A program made the position numbers and the translations under genes. From Candidatus Saccharimonadales bacterium (GTDB lineage: Bacteria; Patescibacteriota; UBA1384; 2-12-FULL-50-11), in the NCBI GenBank assembly GCA_035480235.1, contig DATIHX010000008.1, positions 96,104 to 160,103 on the forward strand: a DNA stretch of 64,000 nt, written 5' to 3'. Below are positions 3,420 to 54,799 of this stretch, in pieces (the stretch's first letter is position 1; every line of letters begins with the position of its first letter). Under the pieces are notes generated by a model. It was not told the DNA's origin. It saw only the letters and a program-made list of their open reading frames with translations, and did no database searches.

Positions 3420-4268
3420 TTAGCCGCCAGAAGCGGCTGCCGCTGCGGACGCAGAAGCAGACGCCGAGGCGCTGGATGAACTCGACGACGAGCTGCTGCT
3501 CGAGGACGAGTTGTTGATGTTGTCGGACCGGCGAACCAACATGCCAATTGGGAAGGACGCCACTTTCAGAAAGTCCAGGACGTTGTCCCAGAAACTCTTG
3601 CTGTACACCCACTCGCGATCAGCCTGCAAATTGCCGGTGATCCTCAGGTGGTAGTGGCCCTGCTCGGCCGGCGGAACGGTGATGTTAATATCGCGCAGCT
3701 CAGGGACGAGCTGTTGGATAATCACATCATGTTCCACTGTAACTGCGTAGGGCTTGGGAATCTCGACCGTTTGGACGACGACTCGCTCTTCAGTCCAGAC
3801 CGGCACCGTCAACCTAACCACAAACGGGTAGGGTAACGGGTTGCCGCAGTTGTGCACCCAGCGGACAGTGGCACTAACCAACCAAACCCCGTCGCGTTGA
3901 ACGCGATCGTTGATGGTGGCGACCAGCAACTCACCTGCCCGGAGCTTGCCGGTACGAGTGTACTTCTTCTGCCCATCCCAAAACGCCAATTGCATCTTGG
4001 GGATGTCATAGTTGAAGCTGAAGCTAATCGTCTCATCGGCCTTATCCCGCGACAACGAGTGGAAGAACGGCAGCAACTCGTTCGAAGTGATCTCCGGAGT
4101 TAGACCGCCCTTGATGAAGGGGTGGCTGTCGAGCCTGAAGAAGCCTTGACCGTCCACCGGTTCGGGTTCCTGCGCAAAGAGCATTGCTGTCGCCCGTCGA
4201 GGTTTCAACAAAGCTGCGCCAGCGGCCGTGATGGCCGCCCCTAAAAGAAACTGACGACGTGTCATCAC
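3420..4268 (-). CDS. secreted protein with a twin-arginine (Tat) signal and a poly-Ser/Ala tail
   Basis: N-terminus MMTRRQFLLGAAITAAGAALL. C-terminus is S14 followed by ASASASASAAAAASGG. Confidence 0.75.
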   Translation of the reverse strand: MMTRRQFLLGAAITAAGAALLKPRRATAMLFAQEPEPVDGQGFFRLDSHPFIKGGLTPEITSNELLPFFHSLSRDKADETISFSFNYDIPKMQLAFWDGQKKYTRTGKLRAGELLVATINDRVQRDGVWLVSATVRWVHNCGNPLPYPFVVRLTVPVWTEERVVVQTVEIPKPYAVTVEHDVIIQQLVPELRDINITVPPAEQGHYHLRITGNLQADREWVYSKSFWDNVLDFLKVASFPIGMLVRRSDNINNSSSSSSSSSSSSSASASASASAAAAASGG

Positions 4269-5209
4269 TTACCTCCTTGCGGCCTCGTTCGCCGCACCTC
4301 ACACTGGTCGATGTTAATATTGGACAAGACTTCCATCTTGACCCAGACCCGGTGATAGCTGTCGGCACCAGAGCCGATCACCACCACCTCGACGACAGAT
4401 GCCGTCGCGACGACTTGGCCGTTGACGTAAACGGTTAGTTGTTCGCGAAGATTTGGAACCGGTTCGTTGCAACTCCACTTGATTGGCAGATAGCGGCAGA
4501 GCTTGATCGGAGCCGAATTGGCACCAACCTTTTCTTCCCGAAGCCGATTGTTTTCGTCGGTCAAGTCTTTAATGCGACGCATCAGATCGTCGGTATTGGC
4601 GCCACCTGTTTGGGCAGCGTCGCGTTTCCCTTGATCGTAAGCTTGCTTAATCGCCGCGTCGAGCTGACCAGCAGTCATGGATTGACCACCCTTGGTGGTT
4701 GCTACCGTTTCTGGAGCGTCAGTGTCGATGACGAACTGCGTTGCCGGAGCAGCTGAGGCGTCCTTATTCTGGTTGCCTTTACTGTCCTGGCCGACGAAGT
4801 AGGCTTCGATCGAATGTTCCAAGCCAAAGAACATGTCGTCGACCTGGATGTCGTGCGCGTTATGATTGGAAAGACCTTTGACGTGGATCTCCTCGTCCTT
4901 AAGCGCTCTAATACAACCACCACGAGGAAGACGAATTCTCCCTTGGTACGGTGGCGCATCAAATACGGCAACAATCGAGCCGTCAAAACGGATGCCGCAT
5001 GGACCAGGGTTGTGATCACCAGTCAGCGGCAAAACCCGGTAGTCCAGGTACGGACCGAGCAAGTCTTCACCAAGCCGGACCGCAACTCGGCCTTGACTGG
5101 TGTAGCGAATGTGCCATGACCCTATGAGCGCTGGCTTGACAGCCGCATTCGCTGACAAAGACAGCCCTAGGGTGAGAACGACGAAAATCAAAGCAAGAAT
5201 TTTTCTCAC
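4265..5209 (-). CDS. secreted hypothetical protein (Sec signal peptide)
   Basis: GTG start with AGGAG upstream. Signal peptide MRKILALIFVVLTLGLSLSANA. A 4-nt overlap with the downstream gene suggests translational coupling. Confidence 0.75.
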   Translation of the reverse strand: MRKILALIFVVLTLGLSLSANAAVKPALIGSWHIRYTSQGRVAVRLGEDLLGPYLDYRVLPLTGDHNPGPCGIRFDGSIVAVFDAPPYQGRIRLPRGGCIRALKDEEIHVKGLSNHNAHDIQVDDMFFGLEHSIEAYFVGQDSKGNQNKDASAAPATQFVIDTDAPETVATTKGGQSMTAGQLDAAIKQAYDQGKRDAAQTGGANTDDLMRRIKDLTDENNRLREEKVGANSAPIKLCRYLPIKWSCNEPVPNLREQLTVYVNGQVVATASVVEVVVIGSGADSYHRVWVKMEVLSNINIDQCEVRRTRPQGGK

Positions 5210-5573: not shown

Positions 5574-5704
5574 AGAAGGAAAGGGTGAAGCGGGGTTGCC
5601 GCTTCGCCGGATTAATCATTCTCGGTAAAAGTCGTTGGATCGTCGGAGTTACGAAAAATCGAATTCGCAACCATTTCTTCCGTGATGATCGAAACTGCCA
5701 ACCA

Positions 5705-9591: not shown

Positions 9592-11856
9592 TTACTCGGT
9601 TTTGGCGACGGCAGCTTCGGTGGCTTCTTTCGTGAAGTCGCAATTAGAGCACTTGAGGCCGTCTTTTTTCTTTAATAGTAAGTGACCGCAGTCGGGGCAC
9701 TTTTCGGTGGTGGGTTCGTCCCAAAAAGCGGTTTTGCAAGCGGGGTAGTTGTTACAGCCCCAGAAAATTTTGCCGCGTTTGGAACGCTTCTTAACTAAAT
9801 CGCCTTTGGCGCAGTTGGGGCATTTGACGCCGGAGCTAACTTCCACGGATTTGGTGTATTTGCACTTCGGGTAGTTGCTGCAGCCAATAAACGTGCCGAA
9901 ACGACTTTGCTTCACAATTAATTCGCCGCCGTCTTCCGGGCATTTCTCTTTAATCATTTCTTGCAGAATTGGGCTGATGGCTTTTTCTTCGCTGCCGCCG
10001 GCCGTGCCCAAAAACGGCTCAGTGTGTTTGCAATCGGGGAAGCCGCTGCAGGCGTAGAACTTACCGAAACGGCCGAGTTTCAGCACGAGCGGCTTACCGC
10101 ACTTTGGGCAGATTTTATCTGTTTCCTCCACCACGTTTTTCTTTTCCAATGTCCCCTCTTTTTCTTTGAGGAGTAACGCAAACGGCTCGTAGAAATCCCG
10201 CAAAACCGGCACCAGCTGTTTGTCGCCATCGGCGATGTCGTCCAGCTCGTCTTCCATTTTGGCAGTGAAGTCATAGTCGATAATAGCCGGGAAGTTTTCT
10301 ACTAGTAAATCGGTGACCACGCCAGCCACGTCTTCCGGCACAAAGCGGCCGGTTTGCTTAGTCACGTAACCGCGGTCAACGATGGTGCTCATAATTGGCG
10401 CGTAAGTGGACGGCCGGCCGATGCCGCGCTTTTCCAGTTCTTTAACCAGCGTGGCTTCGGAATAACGAGCTGGCGGTTCGGTGAAGTGCTGCTCGGTTTC
10501 CATTTTCTTGACCGTCACCTTCTCGCCGGCGGTCATTTTAGGAAGTTTCACAAAACGTTCTTCCGAGTCTGGGTAAACTTTAAGAAATCCGTCAAAAGAC
10601 AGTTCGCGGCCGCGGGCAATTAAATCAATTTTAGCCGAACTGCCAACCCTGACGATGGTATTTTTAACTTCGGCCGGCGTCATCTGCGAGGCCATCGCCG
10701 CTTGCCAAATTAAGGTGTAAAGGCGGGCGTGGTCGCGCTCTAGGCTTTTGCTGGCCACTGCCGGCAGCAAGGCGAAATCGGTTGGGCGGATGGCTTCGTG
10801 GGCTTCTTGGGCGCCGCGAACTTTTTTGGTGAAAGTATTAGGCACGGCGGGTTGGTAGCGCTCACCGTATTGGCTAACAATCTGGGCGCGGGCTTGGGTT
10901 TTAGCAGTGTTCGATAAATTGTACGAATCGGTTCGCATGTAAGTAATTAGACCTTGGGCTGGGCGGCCGTCGACACTCATACCTTCGTAAAGGTCCTGAG
11001 CAATTTTCATTGTCCGTTTGGCGGAAAATCCGAGAACGCGCGAGGCCATCTGCTGCAAAGTGGAGGTAATGAGCGGCGGCGATGGGCGCAGCGTGGTGTT
11101 AGTTTCACTGATGTCGGCCACATTGAAATCGGCGTTTTTCAGTTGGTTTAAGATTTTGTCGACTTCGGCTTTGGTAGCCAGTTCCAACTTGGCGGTGGAG
11201 CCTTCTTTAACAAGCGTGGCCGGGAATTCGCCAGCGGCCGCTTTCAAGATAGCTTCCAATGTCCAGGATTCTTTGGGCACAAAAGCTTTAATTTCCCGTT
11301 CGCGCTCCACCACTAACCGCACGGCCACGCTTTGGACCCGGCCGGCCGATAAGCCGCGGTAAACTTTTTTCCACAGTAGCGGCGAGAGTTTATAGCCAAC
11401 TAAACGGTCTAGGGCTCGGCGGGCTTGTTGAGCATCAACCAGATTTTGATCGATATCTCTGGGGTTAGCTACCGCCTCTTGAACCGCCTGCTTGGTGATT
11501 TCCGAGAAGCTGACTCGGTGAATTTTGGGATTTGGTTTTTGGGGTTTGGTTTTTTCCAGGCCAAGAGCCTGGATAAGATGCCACGCGATCGCCTCGCCTT
11601 CGCGGTCTGGGTCGGGCGCCAGGTAAAGTTCGTCTGCGTCAGCGATATCTTTCTTTAATTCGGCTAGAACTTTTTTTGCCCGGACGATCGGCTGATAGTC
11701 GATGGCGAAGTCGTGATCCACATCGATGCCGAGTTTACTCTTCGGCAAATCGCGGACGTGGCCGAAAGAGGCTTTGACCGTAAAGTCTTTGCCAAGATAG
11801 CCAGCGATGGTTTTGGCTTTGGCAGGAGATTCGACAATAACAAGTTTTTTAGGCAT
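9592..11856 (-). CDS. topA: DNA topoisomerase I
   Basis: Toprim N-terminus, ITYMRTDS active-site region and multiple C-terminal C4 zinc fingers. Confidence 0.97.
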   Translation of the reverse strand: MPKKLVIVESPAKAKTIAGYLGKDFTVKASFGHVRDLPKSKLGIDVDHDFAIDYQPIVRAKKVLAELKKDIADADELYLAPDPDREGEAIAWHLIQALGLEKTKPQKPNPKIHRVSFSEITKQAVQEAVANPRDIDQNLVDAQQARRALDRLVGYKLSPLLWKKVYRGLSAGRVQSVAVRLVVEREREIKAFVPKESWTLEAILKAAAGEFPATLVKEGSTAKLELATKAEVDKILNQLKNADFNVADISETNTTLRPSPPLITSTLQQMASRVLGFSAKRTMKIAQDLYEGMSVDGRPAQGLITYMRTDSYNLSNTAKTQARAQIVSQYGERYQPAVPNTFTKKVRGAQEAHEAIRPTDFALLPAVASKSLERDHARLYTLIWQAAMASQMTPAEVKNTIVRVGSSAKIDLIARGRELSFDGFLKVYPDSEERFVKLPKMTAGEKVTVKKMETEQHFTEPPARYSEATLVKELEKRGIGRPSTYAPIMSTIVDRGYVTKQTGRFVPEDVAGVVTDLLVENFPAIIDYDFTAKMEDELDDIADGDKQLVPVLRDFYEPFALLLKEKEGTLEKKNVVEETDKICPKCGKPLVLKLGRFGKFYACSGFPDCKHTEPFLGTAGGSEEKAISPILQEMIKEKCPEDGGELIVKQSRFGTFIGCSNYPKCKYTKSVEVSSGVKCPNCAKGDLVKKRSKRGKIFWGCNNYPACKTAFWDEPTTEKCPDCGHLLLKKKDGLKCSNCDFTKEATEAAVAKTE

Positions 11857-12779: not shown

Positions 12780-12816
12780 AGCCGGACGAGACAAAATCTC
12801 GCCCGGCTATTTTTTT
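12780..12816. terminator. bidirectional terminator
   Basis: AGCCGGACGAG...CTCGCCCGGCT followed by T7. Confidence 0.75.
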
Positions 12817-13892
12817 AGACAATATTTGCCGGCGTCGTCTTGATGGACGAGCTCTAAAAGTTCCAATTGAGTAACGAGCGCCAGGAGGGTTTCGACCGGT
12901 TGGCTGGTTAGCTCAATTAACTGATCGATAGTCAGCGGTTCAGAGAGATTTTTGACGACAGTTTTGAGCTCAACGGTTAGATCTTCCGTGACGCTCCGCT
13001 TCGAACGCAACCCGTAATAATCGTCGAGTTGCTCGGCGTCGTCCAACAGCATCGCGCCTTTTTTAATTAAGAAATTGGTGCCTTCGGCTTGGTGGCGGGT
13101 GATGTCGCCCGGCACGGCAAAGAGGTCGCGGTTGTAATCGATGACGGATTTAGCAGTGGTCAGGCTGCCAGATTTTATCTTGGCTTCGATGACGACGGTG
13201 GCTGGCGCCAGTCCAGCTAAGATCCGGTTGCGGACCGGGAACTTCCAGGGCGCTGGCCGGTCGAGCGGCGGATATTCGCTAATTAGCGCTCCCCCATTTT
13301 CCACAATTTTATCACTCAAGCGGAAATGGTCGGTTGGGTAGATGGAGTCCAGGCCGCCGGCCAAAACGGCGATGGTTTTGCCATGACATTCCAGCGACCG
13401 TTCGTGGGCGGTTTTGTCGATGCCATAAGCTAAGCCAGAAGCGATGACGATCTTGCTAGCGAGTTTATCACTAAGTAAAGTTTTAACAGCCGCGAGCGCG
13501 TACGAAGACGGCTTGCGCGTTCCGACCACACTTAAAGCTTTTTGATGAGCTATTTTAATATCGCCGCGGTGGTAAAGCCAAAGCGGCGGATCGGGAATTT
13601 CTTTTAATAGTGGCGGATAGTTGGGGTCATCGATAGTAATAAGCTGAATATTTTTCGATTTTAATAGTCGTTCGCTGGCCGAAGTATTGGTTGGCCGGTT
13701 GACCAAAGCGTCGACTTGGCCGTTGGCTAAGCCGAGCTCGCGCCAGCCCATCTCGCCCATATCTAATAGTTCGCGACAGCTGGGAACTTTGGCCCGCAAA
13801 CGATTCCAACTAATCGGCCCCAGCGGTTGCAGCACCCCCAGCGCAATAATTTCCGCTGGCGTAATCCCCTTCAACCAAGCCTTCTTTGCCAT
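12807..13892 (-). CDS. dprA: DNA processing protein DprA/Smf
   Basis: GLAYGIDKTAHE and Rossmann-like DprA core, with a C-terminal winged-helix-like region. Confidence 0.9.
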   Translation of the reverse strand: MAKKAWLKGITPAEIIALGVLQPLGPISWNRLRAKVPSCRELLDMGEMGWRELGLANGQVDALVNRPTNTSASERLLKSKNIQLITIDDPNYPPLLKEIPDPPLWLYHRGDIKIAHQKALSVVGTRKPSSYALAAVKTLLSDKLASKIVIASGLAYGIDKTAHERSLECHGKTIAVLAGGLDSIYPTDHFRLSDKIVENGGALISEYPPLDRPAPWKFPVRNRILAGLAPATVVIEAKIKSGSLTTAKSVIDYNRDLFAVPGDITRHQAEGTNFLIKKGAMLLDDAEQLDDYYGLRSKRSVTEDLTVELKTVVKNLSEPLTIDQLIELTSQPVETLLALVTQLELLELVHQDDAGKYCLKK

Positions 13893-13991
13893 TTCGCGAG
13901 CGTTAGCGAACGGAAGAGAATGAATAACTCATTCCTTATATATACTGGAAAAAGTTCTAAAAGGTAATTTCGCTCATTCTTTCCATTCCCC

Positions 13992-14013
13992 ATTATATCT
14001 TTAAAGATATAAT
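13992..14013. repeat. 22-nt perfect palindrome
   Basis: ATTATATCTTTAAAGATATAAT. Confidence 0.9.
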
Positions 14014-14040
14014 AGAAACCTCTCTTACCCAAGAAATATG

Positions 14041-14074
14041 TACTACGTTATGCTTTATAAAGCATAACGTAGTA
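14041..14074. repeat. 34-nt perfect palindrome
   Basis: TACTACGTTATGCTTTATAAAGCATAACGTAGTA. Confidence 0.9.
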
Positions 14075-14158
14075 TTGGCAAATACTTATTAAATCCACCA
14101 TATGTGTTTAAACATATACTGCAAGTTGGTGACGAAAAACTGAATTCAGCTAACCCTA

Positions 14159-14187
14159 TTGACAGATCTTCCAAAAAATAGTATATT
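14159..14187 (+). promoter_or_regulatory. consensus -35 promoter
   Basis: TTGACA, 17 nt, TATATT. Confidence 0.7.
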
Positions 14188-14291
14188 TCCCTTACTTTCT
14201 GCGCTACGTGCGGCGCCCTGGTCCAGTAATTTACGATTGGGGTATATACATAGTAACAAGCTCGTTCGAGCGTAGGAGGGAACAAGGAAAG

Positions 14292-14317
14292 GCCGCCAGC
14301 AATGGTGGCTTTTTCTT
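14292..14317 (+). terminator. intrinsic terminator inside the leader (attenuator or sRNA end)
   Basis: GCCGCCA-GCAA-TGGTGGC followed by TTTTTCTT. It lies ~57 nt before the ATG at 14374. Confidence 0.7.
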
Positions 14318-14373
14318 AATGACAACTGACGTGGTAATTGATAGAATAACTCCAACGACTGTTTGGAGGAATA

Positions 14374-14694
14374 ATGGAGCACCTTAGAAAGATTGGAGCC
14401 AACGCAGAGGTTTACGAAGACTTGGGGAATCTCATCCTGACCGTCCGCAGTATGAGAGAAACATTTAGCGTTTCCTTGCCAAAAAGCCTTGCCGGCGAAT
14501 TAAGACAAATTCGCCACGTCAACCCGAAAGAGTTTGACAATATTATGGCCAGCCTAGCGAACCTCTACGAGAATTTTCACCTAGTAGCCATAATGACTTT
14601 TGGACTGTCTAAAACAAAACCGGAAGTTATGAACGAGCTCCGAGCCTTGATATGGAATTTTGGTAATAAGGTCAGCGATAAGATAGAAGGATAA
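14374..14694 (+). CDS. hypothetical protein
   Basis: 106-aa ORF with GGAGGA upstream. Confidence 0.7.
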   Translation: MEHLRKIGANAEVYEDLGNLILTVRSMRETFSVSLPKSLAGELRQIRHVNPKEFDNIMASLANLYENFHLVAIMTFGLSKTKPEVMNELRALIWNFGNKVSDKIEG

Positions 14695-14702
14695 AAACCG
14701 TT

Positions 14703-14729
14703 CCGCCACCTATCAAACGGTGGCTTTTT
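14703..14729 (+). terminator. intrinsic terminator
   Basis: CCGCCACC...GGTGGC followed by T5. Its 3' half (GGTGGCTTTTTCTTAAT) is identical to the terminator at 14303-14319. Confidence 0.7.
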
Positions 14730-14742
14730 CTTAATACTAACC

Positions 14743-14768
14743 AAAACCGGGCTGACGCCCGGCTTTTT
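14743..14768. terminator. bidirectional terminator after rplK
   Basis: AAAACCGGGC-TGAC-GCCCGGCTTTTT. Confidence 0.75.
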
Positions 14769-14788
14769 CTTACCCAGTTTCTTATTGG

Positions 14789-15214
14789 TTACTTCGCAAC
14801 TTCAATACCCATCGAGCGGGCGGTGCCTTCGATGATGCGCTCAGCTTGTTCGGGTGTCCGGGCGTTCAAATCTTTCATCTTGTTTTCGGCGATAGCCCGA
14901 ATTTGGTCTTTCGTCACCTTGCCAACTTTTTCTTTTTTGGCTTGGCCGGAACCTTTTTCTAACCCAGCGGCTTTGAGTAGTTGGTTGGCGGCCGGCGGAG
15001 TTTTAGTAATAAAGCTAAAAGTCCGGTCTTCGTAGACGGTCAGCTCAACCGGAATGATATTGTCGCCCATCGCCTTAGTAGCTTCGTTGAAGCCGGTGAT
15101 GAACTCCATCATGTTAACGCCGTGCGGGCCGAGGGCCGTACCGATCTGTTGGCCGGGGACGGCTTTACCGGCCGGTGCTTGGAGCTTAATAACGACTTTA
15201 ACTTTCTTGGCCAT
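14789..15214 (-). CDS. rplK: 50S ribosomal protein L11
   Basis: Typical L11 sequence ([18 protein letters not shown]...PPAA). Confidence 0.97.
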
Positions 15215-54759: not shown

Positions 54760-54799
54760 CACGTACCCTTGATATATTATAATATATCAAGGGTACGTG
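54760..54799. repeat. 40-nt perfect palindrome upstream of recJ
   Basis: CACGTACCCTTGATATATTATAATATATCAAGGGTACGTG. The inner 24 nt are identical to 8252-8275. Confidence 0.92.

Follow-up and report, generated by a model that had tools for sequence, protein, structure and literature searches.

A promoter, a non-coding stretch and an intrinsic terminator precede an orphan gene, ORF106, in a 64,000-nucleotide (nt) stretch of DNA (the window) from contig DATIHX010000008.1 of a Candidatus Saccharimonadales bacterium, and this order raises the question of whether the RNA read from there is a leader controlling that gene or a small RNA (sRNA) with a gene of its own. Three readings had been offered in the initial annotation, namely an attenuator, a riboswitch-like leader and an independent sRNA; it is the last that stands, and the two leader readings fail against the related loci compared here. 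Positions 14159-14317 very probably form the complete, stand-alone gene of a structured small RNA of ~124 nt, independent of the downstream gene, with the following parts:

14159-14187, + strand: sigma-70-type promoter, with -35 TTGACA at 14159-14164, a 17-nt spacer and -10 TATATT at 14182-14187
14194-14317, + strand: predicted small RNA transcript, ~124 nt, with its 3' end in the U-tract
14284-14317, + strand: intrinsic terminator T1, with a GC core at 14292-14298/14303-14309, loop GCAA and an extension by A-tract and U-tract

Both the promoter and the terminator had been recognised before and are present as then described. The first matches the consensus at 11 of 12 positions and is the best promoter-like site within 12.5-16.5 kb, and the second reads GCCGCCA-GCAA-TGGTGGC plus TTTTTCTT at 14292-14317, its stem reaching 14284-14317 through A/U pairs in the minimum free energy (MFE) fold. 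The likely transcription start, as judged from the -10 box, is A14194, 7 nt past that box and 1 nt before helix P1 (see below), so that the RNA would open directly with a stable stem. The non-coding stretch (136 nt) folds better than chance, at -55 kcal/mol (z = -4.84).

As ORF106 is an orphan, relatives were reached through the neighbouring DprA, by way of contigs encoding its homologues, and one locus was added by a scan of metagenomes with a DNA pattern. The resulting 12 loci are Berkelbacteria-like members of the Candidate Phyla Radiation (CPR), with DprA 46-84% identical, and all of them keep the order L21-secE-nusG-rplK, a variable slot, and dprA-topA-recR. In every one (12/12) an RNA homologue is found just upstream of dprA on the opposite strand, with nhmmer E = 1e-17 to 1e-35 for window 14159-14317. 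A covariance model of the family, R1, detects one copy per locus in the 13 loci, scoring 71-125 bits, and locus L032, a hold-out fetched after the model had been built, reached 76.5 bits (E = 1e-18). The same model had no match in eight DprA loci of other phyla (L003-L012), which makes the RNA lineage-specific and not a general companion of dprA. These controls come from a contig scan with the DprA protein that gave 10 distant loci, from other phyla and with no CPR relative among them.

Searches at the DNA level added little. The strict pattern TACTTTCTGCG-N50-80-GCGTAGGAGGG had no match in the metagenomes of the Joint Genome Institute (JGI), and a looser one had six there, of which only L028 and L031 are real, the latter being the contig of L024; the other four (L026, L027, L029 and L030) lack promoter, helices and terminator, gave no score with the model and were discarded. 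A pattern scan of a viral collection had no match, and phage and plasmid collections held nothing similar to 13893-14790.

Identity to the window transcript is 90.5, 91.4 and 83.2% in L013, L015 and L019, respectively, against 69.7, 59.9 and 59.2% at the third codon positions of rplK in the same loci and 78, 71 and 66% for dprA DNA; the RNA thus evolves approximately as slowly as a ribosomal protein gene and far slower than synonymous sites. Its promoter is kept along with it: -35 TTGACA is invariant and the position of the -10 box maintained in six close members, and the distant members display TTGACA/TTGACT-17-TGnTAAATT, with an extended -10. The spacer between this promoter and dprA is not conserved and varies from 20 to 267 nt. 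The stretch had been called non-coding and proves to be so, with no open reading frame (ORF) shared among the 13 RNAs and with indels of 1-2 nt between close relatives, which rule out coding.

An architecture of three helices (P1, P2 and P3), a one-sided bulge of ~16 nt on the 3' side, a linker of 4-6 nt and the terminator, rendered bidirectional by its A-tract and U-tract, is common to every member of the family. In the window, the first elements would fold into an 85-nt hairpin directly from the start (P1, P2, P3 and the 3'-side bulge), and the terminator, four nt later, would end the transcript. The hairpin is made up as follows:

14195-14205, + strand: 5' strand of P1, CUUUCUGCGCU, pairing with the 3' strand AGCGUAGGAGG at 14269-14279
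14207-14214, + strand: 5' strand of P2, CGUGCGGC, in irregular pairing with GCUCGUUCG at 14260-14268
14215-14243, + strand: hairpin P3, with GCCCUGGUC at 14215-14223, loop CAGUAAUUUAC at 14224-14234 and GAUUGGGGU at 14235-14243
14244-14259, + strand: bulge J3/2, AUAUACAUAGUAACAA, 16 nt on the 3' side only, with a conserved AAUAR-like motif

Base pairs were counted for P1, P3 and the terminator in an alignment of 12 sequences (360 cells). Standard pairs fill 93.9% of the cells, a share that falls to 48-63% on sliding the partners by 1-3 columns, and 13 pairs have changed on both sides; none of 500 shuffles attained any of five measures, although shuffling ignores relatedness and the slid partners are the fairer control. 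By element, P1 has 95.8% of cells paired over 10 counted pairs, three of them changed on both sides, with an invariant U·G; in P3 four of the six counted pairs change on both sides; and T1 is 96.4% paired over 14 pairs, with six changed on both sides. RNAalifold independently recovers the same helices, with 14 compensated pairs. P1 is 11 bp long in the window and 11-12 bp across the family, where CUUUCUGCG.. pairs with ..CGUAGGAGG. P2 could not be placed in a single column register by either MAFFT or model-based alignment and was followed in the folds of the individual sequences: the helix appears in the MFE fold of every member, made of unrelated sequences in each lineage (GUGCG/CGCAC, CACUAUC/GAUAGUG, CAAUAUC/GAUAUUG, CCAACC/GGUUGG or CUUGGC/GCCAAG), and a clean exchange of C-G for A-U separates L021 from L022. 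Two single-stranded parts are conserved as well. The AU-rich P3 loop, 11 nt in the window and 10-12 nt in the family, has the consensus YAGYAAAUWWC, and J3/2 is identical in three of five close relatives and reads CAAUAAU... in the distant ones.

The folding potential also points to one strand. The hairpin reaches -32.8 kcal/mol on the + strand (z = -2.9) vs. -15.2 on the - strand (z = +0.9), and distant members fold with z = -7.5 and -5.3. Moreover, the G·U pairs of P1 and P3, invariant or frequent, fix the strand because they would become A·C mismatches on the opposite one. We see, in summary, promoter and terminator of its own, both conserved and on the strand of the structure, and a secondary structure retained in the relatives through compensatory change; at the level of sequence comparison this establishes a discrete, strand-specific and structurally constrained RNA gene with a conserved promoter and terminator.

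Size variation is found around this core. Six loci (L021, L022, L024, L025, L028 and L032) carry additional 5' domains of ~60-220 nt with covarying hairpins of their own, the first of which covaries among L021, L022 and L032. In L018, the conserved hairpin is separated from the terminator by an insert of 86 nt with a fold of two hairpins (L018:5770-5860, - strand). A pseudoknot between apical loop and bulge was considered, given four to five possible A-U pairs seen by eye; both elements being AU-rich, these are indistinguishable from chance and we make no claim for it.

What lies behind the RNA, between it and the convergent rplK, changes from locus to locus. There is no gene at all in L013, L023 and L032, and no intact one in L018, which has a weak HIT-like relic. 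A HIT-like gene follows in L016, L022 and L028, a 318-aa orphan and then a HIT-like ORF in L015, orphans of 312 and 238 aa in L019 and one of 132 aa in L021, and a convergent M3 peptidase gene in L024 and L025; the slot of the window holds ORF106 and no remnant of a HIT-like gene. Over the 13 loci the downstream gene is absent, HIT-like, convergent or one of five unrelated orphans, never a constant partner. An RNA that is kept with its promoter and terminator while the neighbour changes or vanishes is not the leader of that neighbour, and we consider it very unlikely that a signal decides on the formation of the terminator and so controls ORF106 or, ancestrally, the HIT-like gene. Such a cis-acting leader (attenuator or riboswitch) would account for the order of promoter, structured RNA, terminator and same-strand gene, which is that of attenuation leaders and terminator riboswitches, and for the HIT-like gene behind the RNA in L016, L022, L028 and L015, with its weak relic in L018; the terminator of L028 is only ~25-40 nt from the start codon, and the conserved bulge and loop could be a ligand pocket. 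However, the RNA is intact with no gene following (L013, L023, L032), with a convergent gene (L024, L025) or with unrelated orphans (window, L015, L019, L021).

The folding behaviour of the RNA also speaks against a switch. We folded the 13 RNAs without the 3' strand of the terminator, imitating the nascent transcript, and the core fold was kept at 92-100%, the GC part of the terminator 5' strand never being captured upstream in any of them. Only 3-8 A/G-rich nt of that strand find partners, by which 0.4-7.5 kcal/mol are gained (<=4.2 in all RNAs but one); in the window these A/G bases pair with a CCUU probably located upstream of the transcription start, for a gain of <2 kcal/mol. Alternative anti-terminator pairings, which had been proposed as something to look for, are therefore missing in the sense required, none competing with the terminator in 13/13 RNAs, and P1, with its 11-12 bp and only 4-6 nt away from the terminator, is unable to feed an antiterminator. 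Nor does any ORF common to the 13 RNAs provide a conserved leader peptide; a mini-ORF inside the terminator (MVAFS) was rejected, being present in no RNA other than those of the window and L015. Unlike attenuation leaders, then, this RNA has no exclusive antiterminator, no leader peptide and no constant downstream gene, and genes downstream of it have promoter-like sites of their own. The transcription-attenuation leader preferred by the initial annotation does not survive this comparison: the RNA is conserved regardless of the gene that follows. The layout of promoter, structure, terminator and gene is not an attenuator here, and it took comparative data to show this.

The independence of the RNA from ORF106 can also be read from the region between them:

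14319-14347, + strand: promoter-like site of ORF106, ATGACA-17-TAGAAT, its -10 extended by an upstream TG, matching 10/12
14350-14369, + strand: hairpin CUCCAA-cgacugu-UUGGAG in the 5' untranslated region of ORF106, its 3' arm overlapping the ribosome-binding site (RBS) GGAGG at 14365-14369
14374-14694, + strand: ORF106, orphan gene in the variable slot behind the RNA, not part of the RNA gene

The gene had been thought to lack a separate promoter. The site ATGACA-17-TGaTAGAAT lies directly behind T1, and transcription from it would start ~20 nt before the ATG, so ORF106, having its own promoter-like site, RBS and terminator, appears to be a separate transcription unit. The order of terminator, RBS and ATG was correctly given, and the distance, put at 57 nt, measures 56 nt from the U-tract to the ATG (14374). 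Promoter-like sites right behind the RNA terminator also precede the inserted genes of L015 and L019. The hairpin over the RBS could limit translation of the orphan.

The ORF106 protein has no match except itself among 5.8 billion clustered proteins and belongs to no Pfam, PHROG or PADLOC family. An exhaustive HMMER search of 1.84 billion representatives gave a single other match, P0122, a 1013-aa N/T-rich repeat protein, treated as compositional because its score is summed over eight weak repeats. The single-sequence AlphaFold model has a predicted local distance difference test (pLDDT) score of 69, and a Foldseek search with it against the PDB gave nothing below E = 0.4. In the slot of L016, homology of the HIT-like gene (2002-2370) extends upstream of the called start in another frame (2379-2420), reflecting either a frameshift or an assembly error.

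The end of ORF106 repeats part of the RNA gene. It had been annotated that its terminator reuses the 3' half of T1, and this is confirmed by the two features below:

14301-14320, + strand: copy 1 of a direct repeat, AATGGTGGCTTTTTCTTAAT, the 3' half of T1
14705-14735, + strand: terminator T2 of ORF106, GCCACC-tatcaaac-GGTGGC plus TTTTTCTTAAT, holding copy 2 of the repeat at 14716-14735

The two copies are identical at 19 of 20 nt and are the only such sites in the 64 kb of the window, where 0.02 chance matches would be expected. T2 also resembles the terminator of the unrelated insert of L019, GCCACCCGTCAAACGGTGGC (GCCACC-cgtcaaac-GGTGGC). A similar case was found in L015, where a 30-nt direct repeat of the RNA terminator (5648-5677 and 4564-4593, 93% identical) brackets the unrelated 318-aa orphan, and the second copy precedes an uncalled, intact HIT-like ORF (4105-4533). 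The resulting arrangement of RNA, terminator, inserted gene, terminator copy, HIT and rplK is the one expected after an insertion at the terminator that duplicated its target, and suggests that genes have been inserted at the terminator of the RNA.

Direct repeats of the 3' end of the RNA gene bracketing an insert, as in the window and in L015, recall the tRNA and tmRNA genes used as integration sites, whose 3' end is duplicated as attL and attR around the inserted DNA. The likeness consists in the 3' half of an RNA gene directly repeated beyond an inserted lineage-specific gene, twice independently. The differences are the absence of an integrase in the window and L015, the insertion of a single small gene of ~0.4-1.1 kb and the nature of the repeat, a hairpin terminator and not a tRNA arm. 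Each insert is a single gene, with no recombinase domain in it or beside it. The duplication of the terminator is, therefore, a recurrent pattern and not a demonstrated integration system, and replication slippage or re-use of a terminator are other routes by which the repeat could have arisen.

Turning to the identity of the RNA, the Rfam scan that the initial annotation had recommended returned no family for it: with Rfam 15 at gathering thresholds only five tRNAs are found in the whole window. Under lax conditions (E <= 10; window region, L021 and L023) there were only sub-threshold chance matches, mainly on the terminator, to the Phe, Thr and Leu leaders, ctRNA and RNAI, and none to a 6S, signal recognition particle (SRP), 5S or riboswitch model. 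The leader matches score 19.9-24.8 bits, vs. gathering thresholds of 50-55, and cover mostly the terminator, with a few stem positions beside it, which for a riboswitch or attenuator amounts to no family match beyond the terminator itself. We found no description of this RNA in the literature. By these comparisons it appears to be a new structured RNA family outside Rfam, with the form of an ordinary stand-alone bacterial sRNA gene. With Hfq-independent sRNAs of Firmicutes such as RsaE/RoxS it has in common a sigma-70-type promoter of its own, a size of ~120 nt, an intergenic location, a 5' stem from the first nucleotides, conserved single-stranded loops and a Rho-independent terminator. Unlike them it matches no model, tolerates large domain insertions and shows covariation-backed conservation down to 46% DprA identity, deeper than is typical for base-pairing sRNAs.

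A strong consensus promoter, a long irregular hairpin, ~120 nt and strong conservation in a reduced genome are also what a diverged housekeeping RNA, 6S or small SRP RNA, would present if it had been missed by the Rfam models in this lineage. The resemblance to 6S RNA (ssrS, RF00013) extends to the look of a constitutive housekeeping RNA, a large internal loop, a co-oriented downstream gene in some relatives, as in ssrS-ygfA, and a bulge that holds a -10-like motif, (C/U)AUA(A/G)U. However, in 6S RNA, of ~150-200 nt, the 5' and 3' ends pair in a closing stem and the central bubble is two-stranded. The RNA described here is ~124 vs. ~180 nt long, its bulge is one-sided, and in the folds of 12 members it has no 5'-3' closing stem and ends at an intrinsic terminator. 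From the small SRP RNA (4.5S) it differs in its AU-rich apical loop of 10-12 nt in place of a GNRA tetraloop with the domain IV loops. The AU-rich loop, one-sided internal loop, unpaired ends and intrinsic terminator, together with lax-filter scans of the window, L021 and L023 in which no 6S (RF00013) or SRP model matched at E <= 10, leave this identification highly improbable.

A different kind of explanation would do without a functional transcript, the conserved DNA being a compound regulatory or insulating element, made of a promoter divergent from that of dprA, and overlapping it in some relatives, plus a bidirectional terminator that shields dprA from read-through out of rplK. Several observations fit it. 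In L032, L022, L023, L024, L018 and L019 the -35 box of the RNA is 0-40 nt away from the start codon of dprA, or overlaps it, and the RNA terminator, 17 nt from the rplK stop in L013, is there the only one between the convergent units; in L015 and L018 it scores on the rplK strand too. From these cases the terminator appears to be bidirectional against the convergent rplK operon as well, and the sole one in some relatives. Nevertheless, promoter and terminator roles leave the conservation of the intervening 85 nt unexplained, and a role at the DNA level explains neither the compensatory changes in P1, P2 and P3 nor the strand-specific G·U pairs, so that we give this explanation hardly any probability.

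Both ends of the RNA gene show some further peculiarities in the relatives. At L032:3982-4010, L018:5952-5980 and L019:5935-5963, the RNA promoter comes up to the start of dprA or extends over it; its -35 box covers the first codons of dprA in L032 and is 20 nt away from the ATG in L018 and 37 nt away in L019. L032 also has, at 3967-3994 on the other strand and overlapping the RNA promoter, a promoter-like site for a leaderless dprA. Some interplay with the dprA promoter is possible, though it would not explain the covarying helices. At the other end, a relic past the called rplK stop of L032 (L032:3718-3773) still encodes the usual C-terminus of L11 (..AVEVAK*), which points to a small rearrangement beside the RNA terminator, at the rplK 3' end.

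Returning to the stand-alone RNA gene, we infer that its product acts in trans. The mode that we tentatively prefer, with somewhat less than even confidence, is an RNA bound by protein. It is suggested by the near invariance of the P1 sequence, and not just of its pairing, and of two single-stranded AU-rich elements, by conservation down to 46% DprA identity, a depth where base-pairing sRNAs are usually unrecognisable, and by the tolerance of large insertions around a constant core (86 nt in L018 and the 5' domains of 60-220 nt). Base-pairing sRNAs normally decay at such depth, and a constant core that takes up large insertions is a typical trait of ribonucleoprotein RNAs. The next option, possible if rather doubtful, would be a base-pairing regulator acting through the apical loop or the bulge. 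A wider proposal appears unlikely to us, namely a so far unrecognised ribonucleoprotein or housekeeping RNA of a minimal CPR genome, in which the compact hairpin would have a dedicated protein partner and possibly stand in for 6S RNA, to our knowledge not reported in these bacteria, the terminator being a recombination hot spot that captures promoter-bearing orphans. Beyond the protein-bound and base-pairing modes, what is left falls to an antisense or cis function, at the promoter of dprA or in the direction of rplK, or to something unforeseen.

Some points weigh against the interpretation as an independent, trans-acting RNA and should be kept in mind. Transcript, transcript ends and abundance are all predicted, and the protein-binding mode is read from the pattern of conservation only. 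The 13 sequences come from one lineage and make a small, phylogenetically correlated sample, and for P2, where a single register was not reached, the support comes from per-sequence folds. In addition, a HIT-like gene follows the RNA on the same strand by ~25-155 nt in four loci, and the little room for a full promoter in L028 leaves some chance of a coupling to this gene by read-through.

The genomes of CPR bacteria (Patescibacteria) are tiny, with few non-essential elements left in them, and we found no paper describing non-coding RNAs from them. The slow evolution, the three compensated helices and the fixed chromosomal position make the RNA presented here a solid candidate for a lineage-specific functional RNA, and the R1 model makes it a concrete family to look for in metatranscriptomes. 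The terminator duplicated around unrelated orphans offers, in turn, a small case, open to testing, of how reduced genomes may acquire new genes.

The surroundings of the RNA gene in the window largely follow the order of the related loci. The topA gene (9592-11856, - strand) is followed by a gene for a 203-aa hypothetical protein (+ strand) and by dprA (12807-13892, - strand); to the right of dprA come an intergenic region of 481 nt, ORF106 and rplK (14789-15214, - strand), and upstream of rplK, all on the - strand, a gene for a 111-aa membrane protein, nusG, secE and rplU. By DprA, the closest named relatives are Berkelbacteria; the ORF106 protein is labelled 'Candidatus Saccharimonadales' in one public source. 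One more terminator lies between the convergent genes:

14743-14772, bidirectional: terminator T3, shared with the convergent rplK (14789-15214, - strand) and homologous to the HIT/rplK terminator of L016

No rplA follows rplK in any of the loci (13/13), and rplU (L21) precedes the secE-nusG-rplK cluster. The conserved membrane protein of ~111 aa, without family, is encoded between nusG and rplK in the window, L013, L018, L021 and L022. The real 5' end of dprA in the window is uncertain: in L013 the gene begins right behind a conserved TATATAAGGA (window 13893-13960, - strand), and the window counterpart of the L013 ATG opens an ORF of only nine codons, the called start being 40 nt further.

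The AT-rich spacer (32% GC) between the divergent promoters of dprA and the RNA contains a perfect palindrome of 34 nt, TACTACGTTATGCTTTA|TAAAGCATAACGTAGTA, at 14041-14074, unique in the window, which could be an operator for dprA or the small RNA, or a - strand terminator. On either side of it is a shorter AT-rich palindrome with TTTAAA at its centre (13992-14013 and 14101-14118); the second has a counterpart in L013, and the remaining spacer is not conserved. The longest palindrome of the window is found elsewhere, a perfect one of 40 nt, CACGTACCCTTGATATATTA|TAATATATCAAGGGTACGTG, at 54760-54799.

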